DNA from: a bacterium
Lineage (GTDB): Bacteria; Hinthialibacterota; Hinthialibacteria; Hinthialibacterales; Hinthialibacteraceae
Assembly (NCBI GenBank): GCA_041946805.1
Contig: JBHGBC010000007.1
Coordinates: 7,527 to 71,526, forward strand
Length of the DNA stretch: 64,000 nt
Reading direction: 5' to 3'
Numbering within the stretch: the first letter of the stretch is position 1; every line of letters begins with the position of its first letter. Position numbers and translations under genes: made by a program. Below, piece after piece: positions 19,911 to 60,654 of this stretch. Under the pieces are notes generated by a model. That model saw nothing but the letters and a program-made list of their open reading frames with translations. It searched no databases and was not told the DNA's origin.

Positions 19911-19924
19911 GAGTCGAAACCTCC

Positions 19925-22383: not shown

Positions 22384-22424
22384 CCCCTCAACACGCAAGA
22401 TCAATAGGGATCTCGAAAGAGTAT

Positions 22425-25409: not shown

Positions 25410-25604
25410 TGGTGTATGACCTCCCTGTCCAAGCGTTTGGCGCCTTGGCGCCCGGTTCCTCCTTGAACCGCCGTCAATCCGATTGTGGGTGATTTCCAGG
25501 CTCCGGATACACGGGAGCGGAAATCCGGGTGTGGGACCGCGTCCAGCGGTCGGCGGTCCCCAAGGCTTCCTCGGAGAGGTCCAGCCTTGCTGAGGATCGA
25601 TTGT

Positions 25605-26018
25605 TTACCCTGGCGTGGGCATGACCACGGTACTGTCGATCTGGGTGAAGACGATTTTTTGCAACTGGGACTGGTCCATCGCGGTGACCACCGTGCGGTT
25701 GTCCACGTTCACCACGAAGGCTTTGCGGTCCATCAGGATGAGGGAGAGGTGGCCCCCCTTCTCCTTGGCCAGGTCGATGGCCTGGTCCAGCTGGGTCAGG
25801 GTTTGGTCATCCAGATCGATGCCCCGGGATTCCACGCGTTGCCGGGCGTGGGCGGAGAGGTTGACGTCCACGCCGGGTGGAACCATTTTCTCACGCAGAA
25901 TATCCCCGAATGAACGGCCTTGATTGGCCGCGGGCCGCATGCCCACGATCGGCGGTTGGAGAAAATCGGTGATCGCCGGGGTTGGCAATCCGGCCGGCGG
26001 CAGTTGGATCGAATTCAC
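25605..26018 (-). CDS. flagellar operon protein (TIGR02530-like small protein found between flgD and flgE)
   Basis: 137 aa. ATGA-coupled to flgD. Placed between flgD and flgE as in Clostridia/Thermotogae operons. Family call is from context and rough similarity only. Confidence 0.45.
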   Translation of the reverse strand: MNSIQLPPAGLPTPAITDFLQPPIVGMRPAANQGRSFGDILREKMVPPGVDVNLSAHARQRVESRGIDLDDQTLTQLDQAIDLAKEKGGHLSLILMDRKAFVVNVDNRTVVTAMDQSQLQKIVFTQIDSTVVMPTPG

Positions 26019-26698
26019 GCGGCGTTCCTCCTTTCATAGACGGCTTGCACATCCGATAACGGCGCGGCCTGGCCGTTGATCAGCAAAATGGGAGTTCCAT
26101 CCAGGAAGGTGACTCCATCCACCAGATCCCGGATATAAACCGGTATTTCGCTTTCGTTGCCTCCCGCGTCCACGGTGGAGCCGATGGAAATCTGGTAATT
26201 CCCTGCCGTGAGCGTCTGGCCCTTGGCGTTTTTCCCATCGAAGTCGTATTCAACTTCTCCGGGGGCGGGGGCGTTGATCACATCGTTGTAAACAATGCGG
26301 CCCGAGGCATCCGTCACCTGGACCGGAATTTCGCCCGCCTGGGGCGCCTGAAACACGAAATGGACAGCCTCGTCCGGCTGGAAGGCGAACTGATTGCCCA
26401 CCACGGTCGCTTCCTTGCCGATCAAGGAAAGCGCCTGGGCGGTGGCGTTGTTTTGCTGTCCCGCGACCAGTTGCTCCAGGAGTTTGGTTTGCGTTTGTTG
26501 CTGCTCGAGCGAACTGAAGGTCGCCAGTTCCGCCACGAATTCCTGGTTTTCGATGGGATTGAGCGGATCCTGATGCTGCAATTGGGCAATCAACAGGCGC
26601 AGGAAGTCTTCCTTGTTGACGTTGTCCGTGCTCGTGGAGGTCAGCGTGGTTTCGTTTTGGGACACCGGGCTGTTCATGGCGGAAACGGCGGCGGTCAT
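26015..26698 (-). CDS. flgD: flagellar hook capping/assembly protein FlgD
   Basis: KEDFLRLLIAQLQHQDPLNPIENQEFVAELATFSSLEQ is the canonical FlgD N-terminal motif. C-terminal Ig-like domain. Confidence 0.9.
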   Translation of the reverse strand: MTAAVSAMNSPVSQNETTLTSTSTDNVNKEDFLRLLIAQLQHQDPLNPIENQEFVAELATFSSLEQQQTQTKLLEQLVAGQQNNATAQALSLIGKEATVVGNQFAFQPDEAVHFVFQAPQAGEIPVQVTDASGRIVYNDVINAPAPGEVEYDFDGKNAKGQTLTAGNYQISIGSTVDAGGNESEIPVYIRDLVDGVTFLDGTPILLINGQAAPLSDVQAVYERRNAA

Positions 26699-26724
26699 GG
26701 TTCAAGCTCCTTTATCGATCCGCG

Positions 26725-29070
26725 TCATTGGAAATAATCCATCGCGGTAAACCGGTCTTTCCAATACGAATTGTTCCGGCGGGAATGGCGCTCCCCGGAC
26801 GAGCGGCGGCCGGACCGGTCATCCTCTCCGGCGGGATCGTGCCGGCTGGACCGGTTGGATTGGGAATCGTTCTTGGCGGAATCCTGTTGTTTGGCGTCCA
26901 GCGTCTCCTTGGAGATGGTCAACCGTTCCACGCGAATGCCTTGATCGTCGAACGCGGAACGCAGGGCGGTGATATTCTGTTCCAGCAAGGCGCGGGTGGC
27001 GTGTTTTTCGGCGCTGATCTGGGCGGACAACAGGTTGTTTTCCAAGGTCATGCGCACGACGATATGGCCGAGCGATTCGGGAACCAGGCGCAAGCTGACC
27101 TGGCTGCGCTGCGAGCCGAGTGATCCTTGCACGGCGCGCACGATCTGGCGGGAAGCGGTTTCCTGCAATTGGGCGATTTTTTCGGTATAGGCCTGGGCCA
27201 TGCCGGACGCGGAGGGAGTCTGGGCTGCGTGGGTTTCATTCATCACCGGCGGCGCGGCGTCTGGATGCATGGGCTGGTGGCATTGCGCCTGAACGATTTC
27301 CGGATGGACCGGGGTTGCCGGGGTGGTGGCCGGACGGGAAGCCGGCGGCAAGGTTTCCACTACCGTGTCCAGGGTGGCGCCAGAAGACGGTGGCGCAGAT
27401 TCGGTTTGGGATTCCGGAATCCGCTGGAGCTGGGTGTCCGGTTCGCGGTTGGCGGCTTCACGGTGAAGAGAAGCAGATGCGGTTGTCTTTTTCACAACCG
27501 GTATGGCTATCTTTTCCATGGATTCGTTCGAGCATTGGTCCGATGGGCCGTCCTCGGCCATGACATCGATCCCAGGGATGAAATTCTTCCGTTTGTCATC
27601 CAGTTTCACCGAGCCGGGATCATGGGATGGGATTGTCTTACGGGCTTGCGGATTCGCGGCGGACAGGAAAACTGTCTGATCATCTTTCATTCCCCACTTG
27701 GAAGGGATTTCACTGGAGTCCGAAGTGAACAAGAGAGGGGAACGGTCCGGGTACTCCGGGGCTGTGCCCGGGGCGCCGGTTGATGGGAATCCGTTCTGAA
27801 ATCCGGAGGGCATTCCCTGAAACGGAGGAAGAGAATTGGCTGATTGGATGGTCTCCCTTGTTGTGGAAGTGTTGATTTCATCCGTACATTCAATGGGCTC
27901 TTCCAAGGTTATTTGAGTGAAAACAGATTCCGCCGGGAGAGACGGTTTCTCAGTTTTCCGCTGCATGTTCATATCTATTGGGGAGGAATGAACCTTGCCG
28001 GCGGCATGCGGCATGGAACCATGGTGGTCCGCGGATATTCTAGAATGCTCCGTCAGAAACGTGGTTTCAGCGGATAGTTGTGCGCCGGACTGGAAGTGTG
28101 TGACTTTCCTGACCGTCTTCTCTGAACTTATCCCTACGGGAATTGCGGTGTTGTCATTATTGGCGCTTTTGATGCCAACCGACTCCTCTTTGATACTCCG
28201 CTTTGGGGAGTGCTTTGATTCCTGTATTTTATATTTCCCGGTGGGTGCCGGCTGATCAGGGCTGGACTGGATATTCAATGCCATCGGCCTGTCGGGAGTG
28301 GCTAAAAAATGCCGAGAATCGGCAATATTTTCCCACGTTGGGATATCATTTGGGGGGATGGATGGCCCGGATGGAGAAGGGATGGGAATGTCCGTTCCCT
28401 GAGGGTATCCTTGCACGGCAGGTTGGGACGGAAAATCGAAAGAAACACGTGTAGTTTGGCACTCATGCGATGCATTCGAGTCGAGGATGGTTTTTGACAC
28501 ATCGATGGAGTTGTATCCGTTTGACTTGGCATCCCCTCGTTTATCCCGGACCAGGCTGCCAGCGTGAATAATCCGGGGGGAGAGAGCCGGGAGTTCGCCT
28601 GTTTCTTGCGGCGCCGATGCGAAGTCCAGCAGCCGTTCCGTCAAAGGGGAATCCGGTTTCGAGGAAATGCGGTTGCCTTCCAGATTTCCGCCCGCCGGGA
28701 GGGCCAGCGGATCCTGAGTGGAATCCGGCGGGGAAAGTATATTTAAGTGAATCGTGGGATTTTTGTCTTGGCCCTCGGTCCGCGTGGATTCGTGGGACAA
28801 GAAAAGCGCACGGGCAGAGCTTTCCTTTAAGTTCTCTGCCGATATTGCTTTTCGAGACTGGCCAGGCCGGGCCGGGGAGGTTATGGTCACTTCCTGGCGG
28901 GAAGAATGATTGGTTGAAGGACGATGCAGCGCTTCCTGAAACAGGGGGAAGAAGGGGGAAGTGGAGGTTGAGTTCAAAACCGTGGGAGCCTTGGCTCGAA
29001 GCCCGGCCGCCGTATTGGAACGGGAGCGGTCCAAAAAGAAAACAGCGGCGTTTTGTCCCATGTTTACCAT
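26725..29070 (-). CDS. fliK: flagellar hook-length control protein FliK, large Ser/Pro-rich form
   Basis: C-terminal Flg_hook domain: VSLRLVPESLGHIVVRMTLENNLLSAQISAEKHATRALLEQNITALRSAFDDQGIRVERLTI. Long low-complexity N-terminal region. Start is ambiguous (29061-29103). Confidence 0.7.
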   Translation of the reverse strand: MVNMGQNAAVFFLDRSRSNTAAGLRAKAPTVLNSTSTSPFFPLFQEALHRPSTNHSSRQEVTITSPARPGQSRKAISAENLKESSARALFLSHESTRTEGQDKNPTIHLNILSPPDSTQDPLALPAGGNLEGNRISSKPDSPLTERLLDFASAPQETGELPALSPRIIHAGSLVRDKRGDAKSNGYNSIDVSKTILDSNASHECQTTRVSFDFPSQPAVQGYPQGTDIPIPSPSGPSIPPNDIPTWENIADSRHFLATPDRPMALNIQSSPDQPAPTGKYKIQESKHSPKRSIKEESVGIKSANNDNTAIPVGISSEKTVRKVTHFQSGAQLSAETTFLTEHSRISADHHGSMPHAAGKVHSSPIDMNMQRKTEKPSLPAESVFTQITLEEPIECTDEINTSTTRETIQSANSLPPFQGMPSGFQNGFPSTGAPGTAPEYPDRSPLLFTSDSSEIPSKWGMKDDQTVFLSAANPQARKTIPSHDPGSVKLDDKRKNFIPGIDVMAEDGPSDQCSNESMEKIAIPVVKKTTASASLHREAANREPDTQLQRIPESQTESAPPSSGATLDTVVETLPPASRPATTPATPVHPEIVQAQCHQPMHPDAAPPVMNETHAAQTPSASGMAQAYTEKIAQLQETASRQIVRAVQGSLGSQRSQVSLRLVPESLGHIVVRMTLENNLLSAQISAEKHATRALLEQNITALRSAFDDQGIRVERLTISKETLDAKQQDSAKNDSQSNRSSRHDPAGEDDRSGRRSSGERHSRRNNSYWKDRFTAMDYFQ

Positions 29071-29278
29071 CCGTGGCGACTTTCGCGGCGGCTCCGGCCG
29101 CAATGTGGGAACAGATAATGATCAAGGAAAAGCAAAGTCGATGCCAGGTTTGATTTATGGCAAGAAACCAGCGTGAGTATACGGTAATCACTTGATTTTG
29201 TTGAGCTAAAAACCACAATGGCGAAGGAGGGACGGGCAGGGGAAGTCAGGGAAAGGGGCAATTTTTGCCCAGGATGGG

Positions 29279-33074: not shown

Positions 33075-33286
33075 CGGCTCATCCGGCCAGCGCGTACTTT
33101 TTTTCAAGCATGCCCGGCCGCTTTTCAACCGGGCGGGCCGGGGGACGTAACCACCAAATCCCCTCACCCTCGGGGAGAGGGCCTGGGTGAGGGCCTATTT
33201 GCAGGGGCGGACCTGGGTGTCCGTCCGAATCCTTGAGTGGATAGTCCGCCTACCTCATTAGCCGGTACGCGCTGGCCGGATGAACC
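33075..33286. mobile_element. MITE-like ~210-bp element copy A with terminal inverted repeats (TCATCCGGCCAGCGCGTAC...GTACGCGCTGGCCGGATGA) and embedded REP core
   Basis: Perfect 19-bp terminal inverted repeats. Internal REP core at 33160-33193. Internal hairpin CGGACCTGGGTGTCCG. Shares overall architecture with the copies at 51224 and 60447. Confidence 0.7.
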
Positions 33287-35939: not shown

Positions 35940-35972
35940 CCCTCACCCTGGCCCTCTCCCGGAGGGAGAGGG
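35940..35972. repeat. REP-like element copy (CCCTCACCCTGGCCCTCTCCCGGAGGGAGAGGG)
   Basis: Intergenic, between kdsB and the 36094 gene. Confidence 0.85.
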
Positions 35973-37287: not shown

Positions 37288-37356
37288 TCCATTATTCTTC
37301 TGAAAAATACGATCGGTAATCATCCGAATTGACTGGCCAAATTTTTCACCTGATCC

Positions 37357-37387
37357 CCTGTCCTCCGGGAGAGGGTTCGGGTGAGGG
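37357..37387. repeat. REP-like element copy (CCTCCGGGAGAGGGTTCGGGTGAGGG)
   Basis: Intergenic. Lies downstream of both the convergent 36094 and 37504 genes. Confidence 0.8.
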
Positions 37388-37503
37388 AGGTCCTTGCTTG
37401 GGCGTCCCTCACCCGGCTGCTCCCTGATGGGGGGGAGAAGAAAAACAAACTGGCGAGGCATCGGTGTTTCCAAGGAAAATTGGCTAGGGACTGGAATCCA
37501 GGC

Positions 37504-41642: not shown

Positions 41643-44600
41643 TTAATGCGTCCCTTTCCACCTATCCGAGAAGAGCAGCAAGTCTTTCCGGTCGATCCGG
41701 CCGTCCTGGTTGAGATCGGCGGCGGATGATCCATGCCAGTTGTGGATGAGGATCAGCAGGTCCACGCGGTTGACGAACCCGTCCTGGTTCAGATCACCGA
41801 ATAGTGAATGAGCCTTCGTCGTAAACCAGGCGAACTCGGACCACTCGCTCCATTGTTCGTTGGCGTCCTGGTACCGGACGCGCCATTCGTAGTTTTGGCC
41901 GCTTTGGAGTGGACCTAACGGGATCTTGGTTTGGGAGGTGGGAGCGAGGGATCCGCTTTCCCAAACCAATGTGCCGAAGGTGTACTCGCGGATTTCGAAT
42001 TGCGCCGCCTTCCGCGGAGTGCCCAGGGGATGCGCGTATTCCGAGGCTTGCAGGACCGGGGTCAAGGCGGGCGAATACGCGCCGGCCACGGGAGAAAGAG
42101 CCTCGGGCGGGTTGGGCGGCTGCGTGGCGAGAGTATGGATGGTTTCGTTGGTGACGATCGCCGCGTTTGCGTCGAACACGATGGATGCCTGGTTGCGGAT
42201 GGCGGTCCCCGGCTGCAATCCGGCCGCGGGATCGATCCGGAACGTGACATGGCCCTCGCCGCGGCCCGTGGCGGAGTCGTTGGGCGGCAGGAAGCCCGCG
42301 GTCCCGTCCAGGGGGATCGCGCCGGTTTCGGGATCGATCAGGGTCAACGTCCACCGCGCCCGGCCGGTGTAGGGATTCAGGCGCGCCTCGATGTCCACCG
42401 CGTATTCATCCCAGGCCACACGTTGATAGTGATCGGTATGCCCCGCCGGGATGGGAATGATCCGGCCGCCGATGGCCACCTCGGACAGCTCGAAGGAAGT
42501 CCAGTCCAATTGGTTGCTCAGATCGTCGGTGAGGATGACCTGTTGGACCGAGGCCGTGGCTTCCGGGGTGTTTTCGAAGAAGATGGTGTAGGTCAGGGGA
42601 TCCTGGCCGGAGATGACCGCCTCCTTGCCGCCGGGACCGGTCTTCTCGTTGGGATCGCGAGTGACGACCACAGGGGAGTTGGTTTGCTGGACGGGGGTCG
42701 TGGGCGGCTGGGGGAAGGGAGATTTTTCGCCCGTGCAATCGAGATACTTTTGAAACGCCTTTTGCGCCCGCGCGACGTACAACTGATACGCGTGGTAGCG
42801 TCCGGAGGCGGCGTTGGTGTTATCGCGGATGCTGCGGACCGCATCGATGGTGGATTCGACCAGTTTGATCGATTCGTTGACGATCCCGATCAGGTTGAGG
42901 ACCGGTTCGAAGGCGCGCTTGAATTCTTCACTCTTAATCATATTCATAAGTGGTTTCAACTTGGCCAGGAGACCCAGGAAGGTATGAAATTCCTCGGCGA
43001 TGGAGCGCCAAGTCAGCTCGTTGTTCCGTGCGTCTTTCAAGAAGGTGAGCCGGCCCTTGTATTGTTCGATGTAGGAAAGCACCTTGAGCAGCCGCTGCCC
43101 CCAGACTTTGCCTTCCTTCAGTTTCTGGATGGCGGCGATGATCTTGGGGCCGTTGACCACGGCGGCGGCTCCGGCTTCGTAAGCGGCCAGTTCGAGCTCG
43201 GCGATCTTCCCGGCCAGCACCGCGGCCTGCAGGCCTACTTCGCCACCGCTGGCCAGCCAGGTGAAATTGGCGTTGCCCTTGGCCTTCCAGGCGTCCATGT
43301 AGACATATTCCGATTGCGCGAGCAGTTTGCCCACGTTTTTCGCTTCATTACGGCATTGGGCATCGGGATTTTTGACGATGGCGTTCCAGTTTTGCAATCC
43401 GCCCGCGTGGTTGATCATCTCCATCACGCGGGGATCGCGGGCCAGGCCGCTGCGTTCGGTCACGAACAGACGGTAATCCGCGGGAATGTTGGTGTTGGAA
43501 AGCCAATCGAGGAATCCATCGAGATATTCTTGAAAGCCCCGGGCATTCATCAACGATGCGCTTGGATCATCGGCGAGTTTTTTGGTGGTATCGACGAATT
43601 GCGGTGTGATGGGCCAGGGATCGAAGCCCGCGCCCGGCGCGAGCGGCAGTGCTATATCCTTGACGAATGAGCCGGATAGATCGGTGACTTCCACGCTGTC
43701 TTTGGCAACCTGGGAACCGAAAATAATATCCAATTGATAACTTCCGACAGCGAGAGGCGTGGACTGATACACCCCCTCCGCGCTCGCGGTGGAGCGGGCG
43801 GCTTCCAGGCCATCCAGTTTGAAGATCACCACCGCGCCCGCCAGTGGCAACAGGGATGCGCTGTCCCGGATCGTGCCGGTTACGGTTTGGTCTTCACTGG
43901 GCAGGGTGATGCTCAATGGCGGTGTCGCGCCACTCTCCAGCACCGCAAATCCGGACTGCTTGTACCGGGGGAATCCCGCGGCTTGCACGTGGACCTCATA
44001 GGTTCCGGCGGCCATCCCTGCCATGGTGAAAGTTCCATCCCCGGCGCTGAAAGATTTGAGTCCGGGATCCCCGGCCGCTTCTTTGAATAGGACCACTGCG
44101 TCCGAGACGGGATCTCCGGTCCGCGCGGAGACGATTTTGCCCGTGACCAGGCTCTCCGCGGGCAGGGCGAAATCCAGGGATAATGCGGAATCGCCCAGCG
44201 TGACTTGTTGCGTCATCCGGCCCAGGCCGGGTGCGATGACCGCCAGCAGGTAGTTCCCCGGAACCAGGTGGTTCAACTCATACTGGCCGTCCGCGCCGGA
44301 TGAGGCCATCGATCCCTGCCGTACCTCCGCGCCGGGATCGAGAGGAACCGCCTCGATGATGGCGTTCTCCACTCCCAGGGCCGAGGTTCCCGCGGTGATG
44401 GTCCCGGCGATCTTTCCCGATGCCGCGATGAGAGTGATTCCATCCATGTTTCCGTTGACCTGGATGGTCTGTCGCGGGAATGTGTAATCGGCCAGCAAGG
44501 CGCTGAGAGTCAGACTGCGTTGGGGCAGGTTATGGAAGGCGAATCCGCCTTGCCCATCACTCATCACCATGCCCAGCACGACTCCATCCACGCTGACCGC

Positions 44601-47600
44601 CGAGACGAGGCTGTCCGCCAGGGGCGTAATGCCGTCCGCGTCCAGCACCCGGCCGGTGAGGGATCCACCGGGCGGGAGGAGCACGTCGCCCAGCGTGTTG
44701 GCCGCGCCGCTCTGGATTTCGATCATCCGGATTTGCAGTTCATATCCGGTGGCGTTGATCCAGACGCTATGGATTCCCGGCGTAAGCCGGGACACGGTGA
44801 AATTCCCGAGCGCGTTGGTTTGGGCGGTGTCGGACGTTTGCGTGACCAGGTTGGTGAACAGCAGGATGGCATTCTCCAAGGGTGATCCCGCCGCGGCATC
44901 CAAGACCCGGCCTTGGCAGACCGCGCCGCGCTTCATCTGGATCGTCAGGCCGTTGAGTCCCGATTCGGGCACGGTGACCGCGAGCGGCGCGAGGACCTGG
45001 TACCCGTCCGCCTGGCAGCGCAATTCATAATTACCCGGCGCGAGTTCGGCAATGGAATATGTCCCATCCTCGAATGACCAGGCAGGCAGAAGGCTTCCCT
45101 GGGGAGTTTTGAGATAGATCATCGGGTTGGCGATAGGCTGGCCGGTATCGGCGTCCTGGACCACGCCGTTCAAGTACACGGAAGGCTCGAGCAGGAAATC
45201 CACTTCCTTCAAGGCCCGGCCGTTCCAGACCTGCAGCCCGTCGTAGCGTTTGGCGGCGTACGAGGGATGCAGCGCTTCGAGGCTGTAAAGGCCCGCGGGC
45301 AGGGCGGGGAAGCGGTAGGCCCCTGTTTCATCCGCCACCATGGCGCGGATTCCGCCCAGGCCGTCCTGCAGCGTGAGCATGACGCCCTCGAAGGGCGTAC
45401 GGCCGGGCATCTCGAATACGGTTCCCTCGATGATCCCGCCATAGGGAACCCGCCATTCCACGCCGGATACGATTTGCCCTTCGTTCACGTTGATTTGACC
45501 CGGATTGACGCCGGGGTAACCGTTGACCTCGATGGAGTAGATGCCGGAGGGCAGATTGATGAACTCGAATTGCCCTTCGGCGTTGGTATCGGCGGTGGTG
45601 GAGAAGGCGGGAATCCCGGAGCTGGAGATGTTTTGGATCAAGATACTCGCCCCGGTCTGGGGATGGCCGTATTCCTCATCCACCAGCCGGCCGTGGATTT
45701 CCCCGCCCGGTTTTTGTTGGAGGGGGCCGAGGAGGCGGGCCAGCAGTTCATCCGCGCCGGCCAGGATGACGCCCTGACTCCACAAGCCGGTGGCCATTGT
45801 GGCGAGGGCGTCTTGGTAATCACCCCAGGTGGGGCCCACCGCGTCCACGTAGGCGGTCCATTCCGGCGCGTCCCACGCCACCAGCGAATTCAAGTCCTGG
45901 ATGGCCTCCAGGCTGAACGAAATGCGATTCGCGGCGCCTGACTGGAAATAAACGGCGATGGAACCTTCCGCGCCGGGGGCCAGAATCCCCGCCGGGCCTT
46001 CCCGGGGGACCGCGAGGAACCGGACGGGCTTCGTCTCCAGCGGCGCGTCCGGATCGAGGCCGAGGGGGACATCCGCTTCGGACCGGAGCAGCAACACCGG
46101 CGCGGTCATGTCCGCGTCGCCGGTATTTTGATACCGGATCAGCAGCGTATACGTACGTCCCGGGCGGATGGCGTTGGGGGCCAGCAATTCCGCTTCCAGG
46201 CGCGGGCCGATACCGGGAGTCACCTGGAACGCGTTTTCGAAGGTAGATTGAGCGATGCCGCCCGGCCATTTCACCTCGAGATTGTACGAACCGATTGGCG
46301 CACCGCGCAGATTCATCCGCGCGTGCAGTTTCGTTGAATCGGGAACCAGGATTTCATAGGCGGAAATGGCCGTCCCGCCCGGTCCCGCCAGGCGTACCTC
46401 CACGCCGGATTGGAAGAGGGAGCCTTCGAGGGACAATGTGACATCGCCGAGATTGCCACCCTGCGTGGGCGACAGCGAAACGACATATTGGTCCACATAG
46501 TCGAATTGGATTTGATACGTTTCCTGGCTGTCAGCCAAACCGATGGCGAAGACGAGGAAATAATAATCCCCCTCCCCGGTTTGGGTCATCAGCAATTCAT
46601 ACGCGGGCCGCAGTTGAGGTGTAATAGACCGGCGGTCATACCGCGCGGGAGAAGGTTCGTACCCCAGGGCGGCAAAGATGTGGTACCGGCTGGAAGCGTT
46701 GGCGTGGATCAGACGGCACAACAAGTTGCGCCCGGCTTGCGCGTGGAATTTGTACAATTTCAGGCCATATTTCTCGACGGTTTCGGAATAGGGCGTATGG
46801 AGCTCCACCTCGCGCGCCACGAGGACCTGATCCGGGACCTGCTCTTCGCTGGTGAACCACGGCTCGAACAGGACTCCCTGCGAGACGGAGTCCCCGTTCC
46901 CCGGGCCGCTTCCCGAGGGGCCGTTCGCGCTGCCCCACCAGTTGAAGGTGGCGTTCACGTTGATCGAGGGCGAGAGGTTGTTCACTCCCGCCTGGTTGCC
47001 CACGATGTGGGAAAACTGCACGGCCGCGTCCATGCCCGATTGCCCGTTGGTTTCCAGCGCCGTCCCGTTGTTCAGAAAGCGGCTGTAGGCGGTGGTCATG
47101 CGGGCGGATTGCAGCACACGCAAGGCAAATTGATTGTATTCGAAACGGCAGCTCTCCAGGCTCACATCCGCCAGGCCCCGCGCTTCCACACCCGCCCGGC
47201 CGATGCCCGCGTTGCGGATCACCGCATGGCGGATCGATCCCTTGCCTTCATCCTGGAGGAGAATGCCGGCATAGACCGACCAGCGCGTCGCGTCGGGAAC
47301 CGTGGGTGGAGCGGCCAGCTGGACAGGCTGATTTATCTGGCCGTTGATGCCCAGGAATCCCGAGACCACGAATCCCGCATCCCCTCCTTCGAGGGCGATG
47401 AAAGTCCCCGGCCGGATTTGCAAGGAACCGGTGGGCGCGATGGTCCGCGAACGGTGAATTTCGTAATATCCGCCCAGGAGCGCGTGGAGCGCGCCGCTTT
47501 CTTTCAACTCCCCGCTGCCGATCTCCAATCCGGCCTGGTCTCCGGAGACGATGTTGCCCGGCTCGGATGACGCGGCGGTGAGGAAATTCACCGAACCCGT

Positions 47601-50600
47601 CCGGTTGTTGCCCAGAAATTGATTGTTGCCGAAGCGGATACGCGATTCATCGCCGTAGGTGAACAACGCGTCCGTGTTTTCCTGGAACACGTTGCCCCGC
47701 AGCGTGAGTTGGGCCTGGTCCCGCACAGCCACGCCCTGCCCGTTTTTTGTGAACCGGCTGGCGGTGATTTCCACCGCGGCCTTCTGATCGCCCCGGAGGC
47801 CGCCCCGGGTGTTATCCTCGAACGACAGGTTGGTGAGCGTGGCGGCGGTGGCTTCGGCGATCATCCCGTAGTTCAGGCTCTCGCGCAGCGTCAGGTTTTC
47901 CAACGTCACATCGGCGCCTGCCATGAGGCGGAACTGAGATTCCAATCCCTCGGACGCGAAATTGGAGCCGCCGTATTCCACCTCCGCCTGGCTGAGGCGC
48001 CCGGACGATCCGGCCGTGAACACCAGCGCGCCCCAATGACCCCGGGCGGGAACTGTCTGGGCCGATGTGAAAAGAATGGGGAGCGTATCGGAACCGGCCG
48101 CATCCAATCTCCCTTTTATGAGAAGATCCGATGAGATTTGCAGAAACTGAATCGTGTTGCCCTTGGCAATGGTAATCCGGGCTTCCGGGGCGATTTCGAC
48201 GTCCTCGGAGATCAGGTAGGGAATGCCCGGTTCGATCCACTCGCCGCTGCCGGTCCAGCTGCCGCCCGCGATCTTGATGGCGTTGAAGCGGTTGGCCACG
48301 GCGGCGGCATCCTGAATGACGGGAAACGCGTTGGGGAAAATCTGCGCCGCGAGGCCCTTGTTATTTTGGATGACCGGTTCGATGAACACGGGGGAGCCGT
48401 TCTTGATCCAAATGCCGTCGCTGTTGCTGTATTGAAACACGCAATTTTCCAAGGCGGGCGAGGCTCCGTCACAAAATACCATGGAAGCCTGCGTAAGGCT
48501 GGCGAAGTTGGAACCGCCGTATTCCATCACGCAATGCTGGAGCCGGGTGATGGCGTTGTTGGTGGTGGAGCTGAAATAGATCCCGCCCCAGGATCCCGGC
48601 GCGGGCGTCCGATGGAGCGAAGTGAAACGGATGGGATTGGACACGGTCCCCACGGCCCACAGCGCGCCGTCCACCCGGAGATCGGCCGCGATGTCCGTGA
48701 ACTGGAGTTCCGTTCCCGGATCGATGGTCAGCATGGCTTCCGGGGCGATCACCACATCGTTGCGGATCAGGTAGGGGATTTCGGCATAATCCCACCGCCC
48801 GCTGCTATTCATGGTTCCGTTCAGGATCAGGATGCCGTCGAACTGGTTACTCTCCGCCGAGACCGCAGTGAATTGCGGGAAAGATTGGAGGTCCATGAAA
48901 GCGGCGTAATTGGCGTTGGCTGCGAAACGCACGGATGCCACGTTCGCGCGGGAAGTGATCAGGCTCAATCCGTTGGTATGGGAGTTGGCGATCCAGCAAT
49001 CGCTCAGCGTGGGGGATGATGCTTCGCAGCGGATCATGGAATCCACCGTGGCGGAGGCGAAATTGGTTCCACCGTAGCGGATCTGGCAATGTTTCAAGAT
49101 CGAGCCATCCGATCCCGAGTTGCTGAAGAGGATTCCTCCCCACGCGTTATCGGGGATGTCTTTCAGGGAGGTGAACACGATGGGCCGGCCGGTTTCCCCC
49201 GCCGCGTACAAGGTTCCCTGGATGATGAAATCCGTGGCGATGTCTCGGGATTGCACCACCGTCCCCGGATCGATGGTCAACGTGGCGCCGGAGGCGAGGG
49301 TGATGTCCGAATCGAGAAGATAGGGGATTTCCGCGTAGTCCCAGCGGCCGCCGGCCAGGATGGTCCCTCCCCGGATCAGGAGCGCGTCGTATCCGTTGCC
49401 CTCGGCCGTGATGCCGGTGAACACGGGGAAACACCGCGCGTCCATGTAGAGGGCGGCCGCCCGGTTGTTCACGAAGTGAATGGAGGTCAATTGGGCCTGG
49501 GAATCGATCAGGCTGATCCCGGCGTTGGCGGAATCCTCAACCCGGCACGCGTTGAACGTGGGCGAGCTGCTTTCGCACCGGATCATGGAATCAATCGCCG
49601 CGGACGCGAAATTGCTTCCCCCGTGGCGGACCGCGCAATGTTCCAAAACCGAGGCGTTGGCCGTGGAACCCGTGAAGAGGATGCCTCCCCAGCGGTTTTC
49701 CGGTTTGTCTCCCATCGATGTAAACAATATAGGTTGGTCCGCGCCGCCCACGGCATGCAAGGTTCCCTTGACCAGCAGGTCGACGGCCAGGTCTCCCGTT
49801 TGGATGACCGTGGCGGGATCGATGGTCAACGTCACGCCGGATTCGAGGGTCACATCGCCCGCGAGGAGGTAGGGGAGTTCGGCATAGTCCCAACGCCCAC
49901 TGGCAGTCAATGATCCGCTCCGGACCTGGATGGCGTCGAAACCGTTGCCCTCGGCGGTGACGGACGTGAACACGGGAAACGAGGCGGTGTCCATGGTGAC
50001 CGCCGCGCGGGGATTCCCCTTGAACAGGACCGATGAGATCACGGCGGCTGAATTCACCAGGCACATCCCGTGATTCTTTGAAGCCTCCATCCGGCAATTG
50101 CGGAACAGGGGGGAGGCGTTTTCGCAGCGGATCATGGCGTCCTGGGTGGCCGAGGCGAAATTGCTGCCCCCGTGGCGGAGCTCGCAATATTCCAGCAGGG
50201 ACGCGTTGGTTTCATTGCCTGAAAATAGAATACCGCCCCAACTGTTCGCGGCCTCGTCGTTCAGGGAGGTGAAAACAATCGGATTGCCGCTGGCGCCCAC
50301 CGCCGTCAGTTTGCCGGCCGCGATCAGGTCGTCTTCGATTCCGGCAAACTGGATGACGGCGCCCGCCTCGATGGTCAACGCCGCGCCGCTGTCGATCTGG
50401 ATATCATGGTCAACCAGGTACGGCAGGTTCGAAAACCGCCAGACATTCGTTTCCAGGATATGGCCCCCATCGATACGGAGGCCATCGAAGCGGTTGCCCG
50501 TGGCGCTGTTGTTGGACAAGGCGGGGGAGCAGGAGGGAGTCATCTGGACCGCGTCTTGCGCGTTGGCGGTAAAGACGCAATCGGAAAGGACCGCTTCCGA

Positions 50601-51101
50601 ATTTTCCATGCGGAGCCCGTTCGAGTGGCTGTTCCGGAACGTGCAATGCCGGAACCGGGGGGAGGCGTCAAGCACGCGGAACTGGGTGGCCGCCGTGGAG
50701 GAGGCGAAATTGGATCCTCCGCCTTCAATGACGGCGTATTCCAGGCTGCTGGGCCGCCCGGGCGATTCACCGTTGATGAATATCCCGCCCCAGGTGTTGA
50801 CGCCTGCCGCGGGCTGGAAGGTGACCGGCGCGTTCGTTGTTCCTTGCGCATCCAAAACGCCTAGGACTTCCATATCCACGCTGATATCGGCGAATTGTAT
50901 GACGCAGCCGGGAAGGATGGTGAGAGTGATATTTTCCGGCACCGTCAGGTCGCCTTTCACCAGCACCGCCTGGTTGGGTCCCCAGGTGGTATCCGAGGGC
51001 AAGACGCCGGAGATTTCAAGAACTTGTCCCCAACTGGAGAGTACCAAGCTCCCGGACACAAAAAGCCACCCCATCCGACGAATCAAGAGATTGATTTTCA
51101 T
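41643..51101 (-). CDS. giant (3152 aa) secreted repetitive surface protein: ~8 beta-helix-like 185-aa repeats, PPC domain, ~10 CarboxypepD_reg-like domains, helical module, Ig/FN3-like domains, C-terminal dockerin
   Basis: RBS AGGTGGGAAG. Signal peptide present. Tandem repeats carry WGGILF / GGSNFAS / WDYAEIPYL / TIDPGTV motifs, and their antisense frames are also repetitive. Repeated G.V.D..G.P...A.V modules. C-terminus DLNQDGFVNRVDLL...DLNQDGRIDRKDLL is a double dockerin-type calcium-binding segment. Confidence 0.8.
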   Translation of the reverse strand: MKINLLIRRMGWLFVSGSLVLSSWGQVLEISGVLPSDTTWGPNQAVLVKGDLTVPENITLTILPGCVIQFADISVDMEVLGVLDAQGTTNAPVTFQPAAGVNTWGGIFINGESPGRPSSLEYAVIEGGGSNFASSTAATQFRVLDASPRFRHCTFRNSHSNGLRMENSEAVLSDCVFTANAQDAVQMTPSCSPALSNNSATGNRFDGLRIDGGHILETNVWRFSNLPYLVDHDIQIDSGAALTIEAGAVIQFAGIEDDLIAAGKLTAVGASGNPIVFTSLNDEAANSWGGILFSGNETNASLLEYCELRHGGSNFASATQDAMIRCENASPLFRNCRMEASKNHGMCLVNSAAVISSVLFKGNPRAAVTMDTASFPVFTSVTAEGNGFDAIQVRSGSLTASGRWDYAELPYLLAGDVTLESGVTLTIDPATVIQTGDLAVDLLVKGTLHAVGGADQPILFTSMGDKPENRWGGILFTGSTANASVLEHCAVRHGGSNFASAAIDSMIRCESSSPTFNACRVEDSANAGISLIDSQAQLTSIHFVNNRAAALYMDARCFPVFTGITAEGNGYDALLIRGGTILAGGRWDYAEIPYLLDSDITLASGATLTIDPGTVVQSRDIATDFIIQGTLYAAGETGRPIVFTSLKDIPDNAWGGILFSNSGSDGSILKHCQIRYGGTNFASATVDSMIRCEASSPTLSDCWIANSHTNGLSLITSRANVASVRFAANANYAAFMDLQSFPQFTAVSAESNQFDGILILNGTMNSSGRWDYAEIPYLIRNDVVIAPEAMLTIDPGTELQFTDIAADLRVDGALWAVGTVSNPIRFTSLHRTPAPGSWGGIYFSSTTNNAITRLQHCVMEYGGSNFASLTQASMVFCDGASPALENCVFQYSNSDGIWIKNGSPVFIEPVIQNNKGLAAQIFPNAFPVIQDAAAVANRFNAIKIAGGSWTGSGEWIEPGIPYLISEDVEIAPEARITIAKGNTIQFLQISSDLLIKGRLDAAGSDTLPILFTSAQTVPARGHWGALVFTAGSSGRLSQAEVEYGGSNFASEGLESQFRLMAGADVTLENLTLRESLNYGMIAEATAATLTNLSFEDNTRGGLRGDQKAAVEITASRFTKNGQGVAVRDQAQLTLRGNVFQENTDALFTYGDESRIRFGNNQFLGNNRTGSVNFLTAASSEPGNIVSGDQAGLEIGSGELKESGALHALLGGYYEIHRSRTIAPTGSLQIRPGTFIALEGGDAGFVVSGFLGINGQINQPVQLAAPPTVPDATRWSVYAGILLQDEGKGSIRHAVIRNAGIGRAGVEARGLADVSLESCRFEYNQFALRVLQSARMTTAYSRFLNNGTALETNGQSGMDAAVQFSHIVGNQAGVNNLSPSINVNATFNWWGSANGPSGSGPGNGDSVSQGVLFEPWFTSEEQVPDQVLVAREVELHTPYSETVEKYGLKLYKFHAQAGRNLLCRLIHANASSRYHIFAALGYEPSPARYDRRSITPQLRPAYELLMTQTGEGDYYFLVFAIGLADSQETYQIQFDYVDQYVVSLSPTQGGNLGDVTLSLEGSLFQSGVEVRLAGPGGTAISAYEILVPDSTKLHARMNLRGAPIGSYNLEVKWPGGIAQSTFENAFQVTPGIGPRLEAELLAPNAIRPGRTYTLLIRYQNTGDADMTAPVLLLRSEADVPLGLDPDAPLETKPVRFLAVPREGPAGILAPGAEGSIAVYFQSGAANRISFSLEAIQDLNSLVAWDAPEWTAYVDAVGPTWGDYQDALATMATGLWSQGVILAGADELLARLLGPLQQKPGGEIHGRLVDEEYGHPQTGASILIQNISSSGIPAFSTTADTNAEGQFEFINLPSGIYSIEVNGYPGVNPGQINVNEGQIVSGVEWRVPYGGIIEGTVFEMPGRTPFEGVMLTLQDGLGGIRAMVADETGAYRFPALPAGLYSLEALHPSYAAKRYDGLQVWNGRALKEVDFLLEPSVYLNGVVQDADTGQPIANPMIYLKTPQGSLLPAWSFEDGTYSIAELAPGNYELRCQADGYQVLAPLAVTVPESGLNGLTIQMKRGAVCQGRVLDAAAGSPLENAILLFTNLVTQTSDTAQTNALGNFTVSRLTPGIHSVWINATGYELQIRMIEIQSGAANTLGDVLLPPGGSLTGRVLDADGITPLADSLVSAVSVDGVVLGMVMSDGQGGFAFHNLPQRSLTLSALLADYTFPRQTIQVNGNMDGITLIAASGKIAGTITAGTSALGVENAIIEAVPLDPGAEVRQGSMASSGADGQYELNHLVPGNYLLAVIAPGLGRMTQQVTLGDSALSLDFALPAESLVTGKIVSARTGDPVSDAVVLFKEAAGDPGLKSFSAGDGTFTMAGMAAGTYEVHVQAAGFPRYKQSGFAVLESGATPPLSITLPSEDQTVTGTIRDSASLLPLAGAVVIFKLDGLEAARSTASAEGVYQSTPLAVGSYQLDIIFGSQVAKDSVEVTDLSGSFVKDIALPLAPGAGFDPWPITPQFVDTTKKLADDPSASLMNARGFQEYLDGFLDWLSNTNIPADYRLFVTERSGLARDPRVMEMINHAGGLQNWNAIVKNPDAQCRNEAKNVGKLLAQSEYVYMDAWKAKGNANFTWLASGGEVGLQAAVLAGKIAELELAAYEAGAAAVVNGPKIIAAIQKLKEGKVWGQRLLKVLSYIEQYKGRLTFLKDARNNELTWRSIAEEFHTFLGLLAKLKPLMNMIKSEEFKRAFEPVLNLIGIVNESIKLVESTIDAVRSIRDNTNAASGRYHAYQLYVARAQKAFQKYLDCTGEKSPFPQPPTTPVQQTNSPVVVTRDPNEKTGPGGKEAVISGQDPLTYTIFFENTPEATASVQQVILTDDLSNQLDWTSFELSEVAIGGRIIPIPAGHTDHYQRVAWDEYAVDIEARLNPYTGRARWTLTLIDPETGAIPLDGTAGFLPPNDSATGRGEGHVTFRIDPAAGLQPGTAIRNQASIVFDANAAIVTNETIHTLATQPPNPPEALSPVAGAYSPALTPVLQASEYAHPLGTPRKAAQFEIREYTFGTLVWESGSLAPTSQTKIPLGPLQSGQNYEWRVRYQDANEQWSEWSEFAWFTTKAHSLFGDLNQDGFVNRVDLLILIHNWHGSSAADLNQDGRIDRKDLLLFSDRWKGTH

Positions 51102-51223
51102 GGCTTCCCACCTTTTCCCGCCTGGAACCGGGAGCCCGATTGGTAAGGATATGGAGGAGCTATAAAGGATGTGTAATTTTAGCCAAATTCTGGTTAATTT
51201 TCTATCTATTTTTTAAAAAAAGG

Positions 51224-51432
51224 GGTTCATCCGGCAAGTGCGTACTTTTCATCAAATGGCCAACCCGCGACTCGTTGAAGGGACCCATGAAAACCACCCC
51301 CAAAATCCCCTCTCCCTCTGGGAGAGGGCCAGGGTGAGGGAATTCAGGTCGGTGCGGACCTGGAAGTCCGCCCTCATCCCGGGGTGAATGAAATCAATTT
51401 TACAACATCCGGTACGCACTTATCGGATGAAC
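51224..51432. mobile_element. MITE-like ~210-bp element copy B (TTCATCCGGCAAGTGCGTAC...GTACGCACTTATCGGATGAA) with embedded REP core 51307-51340
   Basis: Same architecture as copy A. The terminal inverted repeat positions differ from copy A in a compensatory way. Internal hairpin GCGGACCTGGAAGTCCGC. Confidence 0.7.
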
Positions 51433-51631
51433 CAAAAAAGGGATATAACAAGCGCTTGCTGTGCTTTGAAAAAGGAGCGGTGCACAGTTTTTGAATCCTT
51501 GACAACTCGGGAAGATCATGTCCGTTCCGGCCCGGGATACTCATTATTTCAATTGTTCACAATCACTTCACACCGCGGACCGGTTCCAGCACAATGATGT
51601 TCATAACAAAATAGCAAAGGCTGAATTAGCC

Positions 51632-54139
51632 ATGACCCAAGTTTTCAGTTTCAAATTCCCTAGGCCTTGGTTAATTTTCTGTTTCATGGTGTGGTTTACA
51701 ATGGGGCCCGATGCCTCCATGGCTCAAGAATCCGTTCCCCGGTCCATCGGCGGGATCTATCCGCATCTGGCGTACTGGAATCCCAACGACGAATGCGGCA
51801 CGGGCGCGGTCGTCCCCTGGGCCGGAAAACTCTGGGTGATCACCTACTCCCCGCACTTTCCTCAGGGATCCGAAGACAAACTGTATGAAATCACGCCGGA
51901 TTTACACGTCACGGCCTTTACCGGCAGCGTGGGCGGAACCCCGGCCAACCGCATGATTCACCGGGAAACCAATCAACTCCTCATCGGGCCGTATGTCATC
52001 GATCAGGAAGGCACTGTCCGCGTCATCCCCCCCGCCCAGATGTTCGGACGCCTCACCGGCAACGCCCGTCATCTCTTCGAGCCCGAAAGAAAAATTTACT
52101 ACGCCACGATGGAAGAAGGTTTTTATGAAGTCGATCTGGTCACGCTGGAAGTCAACGAGCTGTTCCGCGACGATCAGGGAAGCATCCAAGGCGGACATCT
52201 GGCTGATAGCGTGACGGCGAAACCGTTGGCGGATTTGCCGGGCTATCATGGCAAAGGCTTTTATTCGGGCCAAGGCCGGGTGATCTACGCGAACAACGGC
52301 GATCCATCGGCCGAGGCCCGCCGCCGTCCCGACGTCCCCTCGGGTTGCCTGGCGGAATGGGATGGCCAAAGCGCGAAATGGAACATCGTCCGCCGCAACC
52401 AATTCTGCGATGTGCGCGGCCCCGGCGGAATTCATGGCAATCCGAATCCGGACACCGATCCGGTGTGGGCAATCGGCTGGGATCACCGTTCCTTGATCCT
52501 GATGTTGTTGGATGGCGGGCAATGGCACGCCTACCGGCTGCCCAAGGCGTCGCATACCTATGACGGCGCGCATGGCTGGAACACCGAATGGCCGCGGATC
52601 CATGACATCGGGGAAGAAGACCTGGTCATGAACATGCACGGGATGTTCTGGCGGTTTCCACGTACCGTTTCGCACAAGAACTCCGCGGGTCTCCGGCCCC
52701 GGTCCACTTATTTGAAAGTCGTGGGGGATTATGGCCGCTGGGGGGACCGGCTGGTGTTCGGCTGTGACGACACGGCCAAAAGCGCGTTTCTCAATACCTG
52801 CCGCGCGAAGGGGAAACTGGCCGCCCCCGGGCAGTCCAATTCCAACCTGTGGTTCGCCAAGCCCTCCATTCTAGATGAACTGGGCCCCCCGCTGGGACGC
52901 GGCGGAGTATGGGCCAACGAGGACGTCAAAGCGAATCAGCCCTCGGATTCGTACCTGTTCCAGGGATTCCAACGACGTGGAGTCCACGTCGAGCACAACA
53001 CGGACGCGCCGGTGAAGTTTACTTTCGAAATCGACCGCGAAGGCAATGGGCAATGGCAATTCTTCCGGGACGTGACCGTCCCGGGGCAATCGGCCACCTG
53101 GTGGTCATTTGATTCGGATGCCCCCGGCATATGGATTCGTGTGTCAACGGATAGAGACTGTCTGGGCGCGTCGGTTCAGTTCGCCTACTCGAACGCGGAC
53201 ACCCGGAGCATGGAAGCCGATCCAATTTTTAATGGCCTGGCCGGGCTGGGATCGCGCAATCTCTCCGGTGGCATCGTGCACGTGCGCGGCCATGATCTGA
53301 AAACGTTGGCTTTCGCGGCCGTGCGGGCATCCGAGGGCAAAATCTCCGAACCCCGCTTTTATGAGTTGGATGGAAACCTGGTTCTAAAACGGGTTGATGA
53401 TCAACCGGCATTGCAATGGACGCTGGACAACTGCGCGATCCCCGAAAATATCCTGATTCATGACGCGGCATCCATAATTTACATTGACGATGACGGCAAC
53501 CGGTGGCGGTTGCCCAAGGGCCATCGTGCATTCGACACCAATGGATGCCTGGGGCCCGCGCGGATCGACCGCGAGGTGGTCACGGAACGGGATCTGTTCC
53601 ATTGCGGCGGGATCTTTTATGAACTGCCCGCGCGCAACGCGGGCGGTTTCGCCAAAATCCGGCCGATTGGCCATCACCATTTCCGGATTCATGATTATTG
53701 CAGCTACCGGGGCATGCTGATCCTGACCGGTGTGGAGACTGATTTTCCGTCCGGTAATCCGCATATCATCCGTTCGGATGACGGCCGTGTGGCGCTATGG
53801 GCGGGCGTGATCGATGATCTGTGGAAGCTGGGCAAACCCGCCGGCGTGGGCGGCCCTTGGAATGACAGCGAAGTTCAAGCGAAGGTTCCATCCGATCCCT
53901 ACTTGATGACCGGCTTTGACAACAAGTCCGTTACCCTGTCCCATCGTTCCCCAAGGCCGGTTACTTTCACCCTGCAGGTAGAAATCGATGGCGCGGGCAC
54001 CTGGGTGGATTACCGATCGTTCACCGTTCCGGCGGGTGAAACCGTGACATATCAATTCCCGCCGGAATTCTCGGCCTATTGGATCCGCGCGGTCAGCGAT
54101 CAGGATACCCAGGCCGGCGTACTATTCACGTACCGGTAA
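51632..54139 (+). CDS. secreted hypothetical protein (835 aa) with internally duplicated C-terminal beta-sandwich-like module
   Basis: Start MTQVFSFKFPRPWLIFCFMVWF (signal peptide) follows the RBS AAAGG. Two homologous ~90-aa segments: NQPSDSYLFQGF...WIRVSTDRD and VPSDPYLMTGF...WIRAVSDQD. No family recognised. Confidence 0.55.
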   Translation: MTQVFSFKFPRPWLIFCFMVWFTMGPDASMAQESVPRSIGGIYPHLAYWNPNDECGTGAVVPWAGKLWVITYSPHFPQGSEDKLYEITPDLHVTAFTGSVGGTPANRMIHRETNQLLIGPYVIDQEGTVRVIPPAQMFGRLTGNARHLFEPERKIYYATMEEGFYEVDLVTLEVNELFRDDQGSIQGGHLADSVTAKPLADLPGYHGKGFYSGQGRVIYANNGDPSAEARRRPDVPSGCLAEWDGQSAKWNIVRRNQFCDVRGPGGIHGNPNPDTDPVWAIGWDHRSLILMLLDGGQWHAYRLPKASHTYDGAHGWNTEWPRIHDIGEEDLVMNMHGMFWRFPRTVSHKNSAGLRPRSTYLKVVGDYGRWGDRLVFGCDDTAKSAFLNTCRAKGKLAAPGQSNSNLWFAKPSILDELGPPLGRGGVWANEDVKANQPSDSYLFQGFQRRGVHVEHNTDAPVKFTFEIDREGNGQWQFFRDVTVPGQSATWWSFDSDAPGIWIRVSTDRDCLGASVQFAYSNADTRSMEADPIFNGLAGLGSRNLSGGIVHVRGHDLKTLAFAAVRASEGKISEPRFYELDGNLVLKRVDDQPALQWTLDNCAIPENILIHDAASIIYIDDDGNRWRLPKGHRAFDTNGCLGPARIDREVVTERDLFHCGGIFYELPARNAGGFAKIRPIGHHHFRIHDYCSYRGMLILTGVETDFPSGNPHIIRSDDGRVALWAGVIDDLWKLGKPAGVGGPWNDSEVQAKVPSDPYLMTGFDNKSVTLSHRSPRPVTFTLQVEIDGAGTWVDYRSFTVPAGETVTYQFPPEFSAYWIRAVSDQDTQAGVLFTYR

Positions 54140-54330
54140 ATCCGTGTCCATTCGATAAAACGGACTTTCCTCGATGGCCGGGATCTCTGCTCGTATTTCA
54201 TTGTCATCCTTCCCGCCTGAAAATGGGAATTCACTTGGCATGATTCCATGTTCGCCGATATGGTATAGAGGGCAAGAGGATTTTCCTCCAGGAATTTCTG
54301 ATAATAAGCGTACAGGCGAGAGAAAATCAC

Positions 54331-54684
54331 ATGTCTATTCAAATCAAACGCGCGTATGATCCGCCGGATCCCGGCGATGGATTCCGGATTCTGGTGGACC
54401 GGATCTGGCCCCGGGGACTGAAAAAGGAAGAGGCGAAAATTGACCTGTGGCTTAAGGACGCCGCTCCCAGCACGGAACTGCGCAGGTGGTTCGATCATCA
54501 ATCCGAACGCTGGGAGGGATTTCAAGAAAAATACCTCGCCGAGTTGAAAGCGCGCCCCGCGGTTCTCGAACCGTTACGGGAAACGTTGCGAAGGGAAAAA
54601 AACGTCACGTTGGTTTTTGCCGCCAAGGATGCCGAACATAACAACGCCGTGGTGCTGCGGGATTATCTGGCGCGTGGACACTAA
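54331..54684 (+). CDS. DUF488 family protein
   Basis: MSIQIKRAYDPPDPGDGFRILVDRIWPRGLKKEEAKIDLWLKDAAPSTELRRWF matches the DUF488 pattern. Confidence 0.6.
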   Translation: MSIQIKRAYDPPDPGDGFRILVDRIWPRGLKKEEAKIDLWLKDAAPSTELRRWFDHQSERWEGFQEKYLAELKARPAVLEPLRETLRREKNVTLVFAAKDAEHNNAVVLRDYLARGH

Positions 54685-54708
54685 CCGTGGCTCCTCGTAA
54701 AATTATTC

Positions 54709-54740
54709 CCACTCCCTCTGGGAGAGGGCCAAGGTGAGGG
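54709..54740. repeat. REP-like element copy (CCCTCTGGGAGAGGGCCAAGGTGAGGG)
   Basis: Intergenic, downstream of the DUF488 gene. Confidence 0.85.
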
Positions 54741-55009
54741 AATACCTTTTCAAAGTGTTTTTACTTCCCAAATCACGCAAATGCCCCTGGTGATCAATCA
54801 TGGATGTTTCCTTTCGGGAAAGGCTCTTCCGTTGCCCGGGTTTTCAACCCCAAATTCCCGGCTCACCTGCTCAAAAGCCGGGGAACATGATATGATTTCT
54901 GGATTCGGCCGCGCGCGGGGGCGAGAAGATATTTCGTACATTTCCCAGGCCCCGGCGGGCGGACACAATCCGCAACGAGAAACGCAGTTGGTCAGGGGAA
55001 TACCGAATA

Positions 55010-60446: not shown

Positions 60447-60654
60447 GGTTCATCCGGCAGGAGTTTACTATTTTACCCGGCCGCCGGCACGCGTTGCCTC
60501 GCACTGACCGGCGAAAACCTCCGCCAAACTGCCCTCTCCCTCTGGGAGAGGGCCAGGGTGAGGGCATCTGGTCAGGAGAGTACCTTTGGATTCGTTGCCT
60601 CATTCAAGTGATGATGCCTTTATCAGGCTCGCGCGCGCATTACCGGATGATCCC
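60447..60654. mobile_element. MITE-like element copy C (degenerate right terminal inverted repeat) with REP core 60532-60565
   Basis: Left terminal repeat GGTTCATCCGGCAGGAGTTTAC. Right end CATTACCGGATGATCC. Internal REP core identical to copy B. Confidence 0.6.

Follow-up and report, generated by a model that had tools for sequence, protein, structure and literature searches.

A probable MITE family carrying the BoxC/PIT/TMECO motif in a poorly studied bacterial lineage

Introduction

The intergenic regions of the 64,000-nucleotide stretch of bacterial DNA that was analysed here (the window) contain several copies of a repeat, F1, of ~209 bp, which has no open reading frame and no coding capacity. 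Each copy is built around inverted ends, a spacer, a G-rich core and a hairpin, and the original prediction read the differences between copies as compensatory changes that preserve pairing in a selected DNA or RNA structure. The question that the locus at 51,224 raises is whether F1 is a mobile element, a folded molecule maintained by selection, or a patchwork of modules spread by recombination. The reading that we favour, with a probability of about 85%, is that F1 is a MITE with 22-bp imperfect inverted ends and 8-bp A+T-rich target-site duplications (TSDs), moved in trans by a DDE transposase and carrying a BoxC core as a cargo module.

Results

Copies of F1 and their anatomy

Copies A (33076-33286, plus strand, 211 bp), B (51224-51433, plus strand, complete, 210 bp) and C (60447-60653, plus strand, decayed) are all intergenic, and they can be aligned over their whole length with a mean column identity of 75%. 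The module order noted earlier, end, spacer, core, hairpin and end, holds in all three. The original prediction was correct in listing these three copies, but it undercounted the family, since a fourth, degenerate copy D lies on the minus strand at ~16835-17041, where a left end with four mismatches, the spacer, the core and the hairpin are followed by a right end truncated after TACGCG. The 64-kb window thus contains four copies of F1. The start given for copy B was also right, but its end had been set 1 nt short, and the inverted ends are present as described but longer, at 22 nt.

The left end of F1 is GGYTCATCCGGCAAGTGCGTAC and the right end is GTACGCACTTNNCGGATGAACC. These form imperfect terminal inverted repeats, which are complementary at 21 of 22 positions in copy A and 20 of 22 in copy B, while the right end of copy C has decayed and is only partly recognisable. 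In copy B the left end (GGTTCATCCGGCAAGTGCGTAC, 51224-51245, plus strand) equals the family consensus, and the right end (GTACGCACTTATCGGATGAACC, 51412-51433, plus strand) departs from full complementarity by one G·T and one C·A. The 8-bp direct repeat AAAAAAGG borders this copy at its left flank (51216-51223) and again at its right flank (51434-51441). The BoxC/PIT/TMECO-like core of copy B, CCCTCTCCC-TCT-GGGAGAGGG-CCA-GGGTGAGGG (51308-51340, plus strand), matches the motif pattern exactly, and consists of a 9-bp hairpin and then a third G-rich block, with four G3 tracts altogether. Downstream of it lies a second internal hairpin, GCGGAC-CTGGAA-GTCCGC (51354-51371, plus strand; helix 4), in which 89.6% of cells are paired over 30 copies.

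The ends of copy A occupy 33076-33097 and 33265-33286 and its core 33161-33193; its flanks agree at five of eight positions, and a partial ortholog, L159, has the left half in common with it. Copy C begins directly after the stop codon of an ABC-2 permease gene and has no TSD. Orientation with respect to the neighbouring genes is not the same among copies A, B and C, and a scan for promoters and terminators around copy B found nothing inside the element.

A flagellar cluster on the minus strand (19044-29103; two MotB-like genes, FlbD, FlgE-like, FlgD and FliK), together with genes for a sulfatase, RecG and DAHP synthase, marks the window as a normal piece of chromosome rather than a mobile island. 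On one side of copy B, an open reading frame of 3152 aa (41643-51101, minus strand) contains repeats with a 549-nt period (~183 aa) at 47900-50750. It matches its ortholog in L140 at 65-79% over most of 50.4-51.2 kb, and it has diverged from L140 much further than has the gene on the opposite flank of copy B.

A dispersed family with 8-bp target-site duplications

To collect relatives, public metagenomes were scanned with a pattern that demanded both the F1 left end and, within the core, its G-rich half, and left the right end free. There were 53 matching loci, for the most part in assemblies from anaerobic digesters and activated sludge, and the F1 copies found in this way include ~30 that are distinct and full length, at 206-214 bp. 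Nearly all of these carry the unrequired right end GTACGCACTTNNCGGATGAACC at a near-constant ~82 nt 3' of the core, and the C-rich arm of the core, which the scan did not require either, is almost invariant. The closest named relative of the F1 carriers is a Candidatus Omnitrophota MAG (Ch114). In a first scan, of a collection of genome contigs for TCATCCGG followed after a gap by the core, most matches belonged to an unrelated composite of Rhizobiales type, described below; the only true relatives among them were two loci of the Ch114 MAG (L079 and L084), the former being the ortholog of copy B.

Perfect direct repeats of 8 bp flank 11 of the 30 F1 copies, against 0.1% in a control in which each left flank was paired with the right flanks of other copies. 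Perfect repeats of other lengths occur in none of the 30 copies at 4, 6, 10 or 11 bp, in one each at 7 and 9 bp and in two at 5 bp. Within one set of F1 copies, a further five agree at seven of eight positions and seven at six of eight (controls, 1% and 3.8%). The duplicated 8-mers, among them GTATTTTT, TGTTTTTT, ATAAAAAT, ACTTTTTT and AAAAAAGG, are 84% A+T; the window is 59% G+C. The insertion of copy B, with an identical TSD, is also found in L079 and L140 (genome ~85% identical at the nucleotide level).

A combination of inverted ends with duplications of one fixed length is what a DDE transposase leaves when it moves a non-autonomous element. The proposal of a MITE-like family therefore holds up well, with conserved 22-bp inverted ends, no open reading frame, dozens of copies and a TSD length sharply at 8 bp, and the suggested count of copies and search for duplications came out in its favour. 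Copy B is in place in both of its close orthologs, L079 and L140, and no empty orthologous site was recovered, so the case for mobility rests on the TSD statistics; homologs of copy B's neighbour gene, used in a further search for an empty site, have 70-72% amino-acid identity and different upstream neighbours, and synteny is lost.

One locus among the related contigs, L177, has at 3801-3965 a 165-nt element without the core and with F1-like termini, GGTTCCTCC ... CGGATGAACC. It sits 35 nt upstream of a homolog, 70% identical in amino acids, of copy B's neighbour gene, and its interior does not resemble F1 above the level of shuffled sequence (80.5 versus 70.2 ± 7.3).

Pairing of the ends without family-wide covariation

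Covariation was evaluated on an alignment of 30 copies with RNAalifold and with explicit pair counts. Between copies A and B the ends do differ in a compensatory way at two pairs, from A-T to C-G at pair 13 and from T-A to C-G at pair 16, with pairing kept, and this part of the original prediction stands. Across the family, such compensation is almost absent: two-sided changes in the end helix affect five pairs, each in one copy (two in copy A, two in L125 and one in the second copy of L155), so that compensated ends are seen in three of 30 copies, against ~100 one-sided departures from the end consensus. Of the 30 copies, 10 carry a C·A mismatch at position 3 of the ends, and pairing fails at position 12 in 18. 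The covariation term contributes -0.55 of -40.3 kcal/mol in the RNAalifold consensus of the 30 copies. The internal hairpin, which had been described as covarying, has the same CGGAC/GTCCG stem in copies A and B, and A differs only by a C-to-T change at the stem edge. With so weak a signal from both methods, the claim that a DNA or RNA structure is under selection is not sustained.

Over the 22 end pairs and three internal hairpins, 91.3% of cells are paired, compared with 90.8 ± 0.3% when partners are shuffled within each column; a fraction as high as the one observed came up in 14 of 500 shuffles, and related sequences alone reach such a range in 5-25% of unconstrained alignments. The end pairs taken by themselves are paired in 90.5% of cells over the 30 copies. 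The end helix has 38 G·T cells and 24 A·C cells, and since G·T does not dominate A·C, no transcribed strand is favoured. As a single strand, copy B folds at -47.6 kcal/mol (z = -5.2), and a strong fold of this kind is expected for any element with 22-nt inverted ends. Orthologous F1 copies are 93-97% identical, which is no more than the 5' end of the adjacent gene or the flanking DNA.

The C at position 16 of copy A is also found in copy D and in the ortholog L159, which suggests a sublineage with variant ends and not repeated selection for pairing. The two compensated pairs of copy A most likely mark this sublineage. The alternative is arm-to-arm conversion, and a small contribution from such correction would be in keeping with a paired fraction slightly above that of the column shuffles. 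Pairing between the two ends is a property of any terminal inverted repeat, and it probably follows from both being one transposase-binding sequence and not from a selected fold.

The core is the BoxC/PIT/TMECO motif

The core had been labelled a REP core. Comparison with published sequences and with six E. coli loci identifies it instead as the known E. coli BoxC/PIT/TMECO motif: both have the same 33-nt pattern, CCCTCTCCC-N3-GGGAGAGGG-N3-GGGTGAGGG, of which CCCTCTCCCTGTGGGAGAGGGCCGGGGTGAGGGC is an E. coli example. The core matches the TMECO sequences in Table 1 of Holder et al. 2015 (PMC4666352) and HPG1/2 of Kaplan et al. 2016 (PMC5100583), two papers that were located by a full-text search for the two G-blocks. 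The motif is present in >260 genomes besides E. coli (Holder et al. 2015, PMC4666352; Kaplan et al. 2016, PMC5100583), and HPG1/HPG2 have been described as a 'G-quadruplex-hairpin-duplex switch' (Kaplan et al. 2016, PMC5100583). Formation of an intrastrand triplex or G-quadruplex has been shown only in vitro, with E. coli sequences; the motif acts neither as a promoter nor as a terminator, tends to lie where the genome varies locally, and was reported to have no link with transposons or with remnants of transposases (Holder et al. 2015, PMC4666352).

The E. coli motif and the core described here are alike in being always intergenic, on either strand and associated with local rearrangement. They differ in that F1 and a second family, F2 (below), hold the motif inside two TSD-bounded MITE families. 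When read directly, the six E. coli K-12 loci have a conserved unit of ~45 nt with unique flanks and so without inverted ends, and they have no TSD.

There are 10 occurrences of the 33-nt core in the window, spread over at least four contexts, and a strict form of the pattern has seven matches against 0.00 expected. The occurrences include a core with an F2-like hairpin after it and no recognisable ends (35940-35972, minus strand), a solo, diverged core (37352-37390, plus strand) and a solo core (54705-54743, plus strand). A public Logan contig, L001, which is identical to 51404-54741 of the window, begins within copy B's right end and breaks off in this last core; it is bounded by repeats, which indicates that short-read assemblies break at them. 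A blastn search of copy B against plasmids matched the core alone, in 524 records from many genera, and never the F1 ends.

Rfam has no match in the window at gathering score, and none of its families appears at the E-value threshold either. The core attracts hairpin matches below threshold only. One of these (51306-51341, plus strand) is to whalefall-1 (RF01762), whose consensus, CUCUCC-loop-GGAGAG ... AGGGUGAGG, resembles it. The core was rejected as a whalefall-1 member, because it scores 15.9 bits where the gathering score is 37 and lacks the central 24 nt of the model. As the whalefall-1 consensus resembles BoxC, this metagenomic 'RNA motif' may be a BoxC relative.

A second family and hybrids joined at the core

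F2 is a MITE of 163 bp that has the core and adjacent hairpin as in F1 and different ends, GTAACNATTTACCCGAATGC. Two 163-bp copies are in the window, at 10510-10672 (plus strand; ends GCAACGATTTACCCGGACGC / GCAACCGAGTAAATAATTGC; flanking 8-mers AGGGATTA / AGGGATTG) and at 13418-13580 (minus strand; ends GTAACTATTTACCCGAATGC / GCAATTCAGTAAACAGTAGC; flanking 8-mers ATAAAAAG / AAAAAAAG), and ~8815-8903 (plus strand) holds a right half only, consisting of a degenerate core, the hairpin and the right end. The 8-bp TSDs of F2 agree at seven of eight positions twice in the window, and at all eight in L145 (GAAAAACC).

Hybrids whose left half comes from F1 and whose right half comes from F2, with the core linking the two, are found at no fewer than five independent loci (L084/L133, L135, L142/L169, L146 and L166), and all are without TSDs. 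Resemblance to F1 stops at the core or at its 3' edge in ~12 of the ~14 distinct F1 copies that have been rearranged, and the breaks in two lie further downstream. The ~50 nt that F1 and F2 have in common around the core may be the point of recombination or breakage, and breakage there would yield hybrids without TSDs and half elements. This pattern of breakpoints fits the motif instability that has been reported for E. coli.

The Rhizobiales-type composite that filled the first scan has the form CCCCTCATCCGGCCTGCCGGCCACCTTCTCCCCG..CGGGGAGAAGGG..core..GGGTGAGGGGC, with inverted ends (GCCCCTCAYCC / GGGTGAGGGGC). It is represented by 88 copies (L002-L116, e.g. L009, L012, L013, L035, L038 and L040). 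MAGs of Planctomycetota, Verrucomicrobiota and Chloroflexota carry it too, as do isolates of Arenimonas and Dyella. None of the 88 copies showed a target duplication.

Candidates for the transposase

The search for a cognate transposase that had been proposed gave none. The 37 open reading frames of the window that were scanned against Pfam are housekeeping genes, with no transposase and no RAYT, and no autonomous partner with F1 ends was found in the window, in ~250 kb of related loci, in viral contigs (0 matches to the F1 end) or in plasmids. End-like sequences across all related loci belong to MITE copies and fragments only. The type of enzyme that the original prediction had in mind, IS200/IS605 or IS630, is contradicted by the duplication: IS200/IS605 is not known to make a target duplication and IS630 duplicates TA, and both are excluded because F1 duplicates 8 bp.

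Our best guess is that the cognate enzyme would be an ISL3-family transposase, a suggestion that draws on TSD length, target composition and a 12/19 resemblance of the ends to one published element, and that denotes a likeness of sequence and not demonstrated membership. That element, CLJ-ISL3 of Pseudomonas aeruginosa, has ends GGGTATCCGGAATTTCTGGTTGAT and makes 8-bp duplications such as TTCTTTTT at T-rich targets, and 8 bp has been called the classical duplication length for ISL3 (PMC7643977). F1 shares with it the 8-bp duplication at T/A-rich targets, the GG with which the ends start and an ATCCGG block (ISL3, GGGTATCCGG...; F1, GGTTCATCCGG...), but the resemblance of the ends is partial, and no transposase gene was found with F1 ends. 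The cognate transposase gene would be expected to be bounded by the F1 end sequence GGYTCATCCGGYAAGTGCGTAC. Other families that combine an 8-bp TSD with GG ends are IS6, IS256 and IS1595, and the F1 transposase could come from one of these instead.

Discussion

As a MITE family F1 is new but otherwise ordinary, and it comes from a lineage that has been little studied. On the favoured reading, a DDE transposase whose gene lies elsewhere would bind both F1 ends, make 8-bp staggered cuts at A+T-rich targets and so move the element in trans. F1 resembles Correia/NEMIS, ERIC, RUP and BOX elements, which are likewise short, non-coding, intergenic and numerous, with inverted ends and TSDs, and which can also form long hairpins if transcribed; their ends and cargo are unlike those of F1. 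The 2024 review of these elements (PMC10969869) does not mention ISL3, or triplex or quadruplex cargo.

One competitor to a MITE is a structured RNA gene, a cis-regulatory RNA or a selected single-strand DNA fold. The low folding energy of copy B, the 91% of cells that are paired in the proposed structure, the two compensated pairs of copy A, the 14 of 500 shuffles that reach the paired fraction and the near-invariance of a core arm that the scan did not require could all be read in its favour. Compensated end changes are seen in only three of 30 copies, though, and one-sided changes outnumber them by far, two positions of the ends are frequently mismatched, the covariation term is a small part of the total energy and the G·T and A·C counts carry no strand signal. 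Orientation towards the neighbouring genes varies among copies A, B and C, orthologs are no more alike than the adjacent 5' coding sequence, and Rfam offers no family at gathering score, while TSDs, truncations and hybrids are traits of a transposon and not of a gene. We consider a structured RNA or selected fold highly improbable. Less credible again, to the point of being very nearly dismissed, is that F1 is a REPIN-like unit, a pair of inverted REPs that travels as a hairpin of single-stranded DNA with the help of a RAYT, a tyrosine transposase of the IS200/IS605 type. REPINs, like BIME and RIME units, have inverted arms around a spacer or short palindromic units that are shuffled modularly, and arm-to-arm compensation is a feature of REPINs that this mechanism would explain in copy A as well. 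A true REP-like palindrome with terminal CTAC/GTAG also exists in the related contigs. Yet this palindrome is a separate repeat that is absent from the window, the ends of F1 are not self-palindromic hairpins with a GTAG guide, and at 209 bp F1 has 165 bp between its arms. REPINs, BIMEs and RIMEs are without TSDs, and REPINs depend on RAYT, whereas F1 is bounded by exact 8-bp duplications.

A third reading takes F1 as a non-mobile intergenic mosaic of the BIME or RIME kind, whose modules have spread by recombination or gene conversion. The several contexts of the core within the window, the frequency of hybrids and half elements with junctions clustered at the core, and the Rhizobiales-type composite, which holds the same core and shows no TSD in 88 copies, are what such a mosaic would produce. 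It does not account for exact 8-bp duplications that bound the full unit in 11 of 30 copies, or for a length and module order that are nearly constant. Moreover, the hybrids are precisely the copies that have no TSD, which fits secondary rearrangement of an element that had already transposed. A mosaic origin is thus very unlikely in our view.

The REP-like palindrome of the related contigs, GATGGGTTACGCGCTNNCGCGCTAACCCATCCTAC, adjoins some F1 copies (L147/L153, L159 and L160); read in reverse it starts with GTAG, as in RAYT-associated REPs.

The carriage of BoxC by F1 and F2 also invites a wider and more speculative reading, which we hold to be possible though doubtful: MITEs may have spread the BoxC motif, which has been unexplained since the 1990s, both within phyla and from one phylum to another as part of their interior; it would be functional for them, and the solo ~45-nt copies of E. 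coli and elsewhere would be relics or recombination products of such elements. As part of that reading, the hairpin, triplex or G4 could stall replication or recruit a host factor, and in this way promote transposition or recombination.

In the window, F1 and core repeats fill intergenic regions about once per 6 kb, break assemblies and mark points of rearrangement. The hybrids of F1 and F2 are joined at the BoxC motif, which thus marks their recombinant junctions. What is new with respect to published work is a link between the BoxC motif and mobile elements, which earlier work had reported to be absent: a triplex- and G4-associated motif that is conserved from E. coli to PVC-group bacteria has a mobile carrier here, in the form of two MITE families. 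Carriage by MITEs provides a concrete and testable route for the spread of BoxC, and also a setting for studying the part that the motif has been proposed to play in genome instability.
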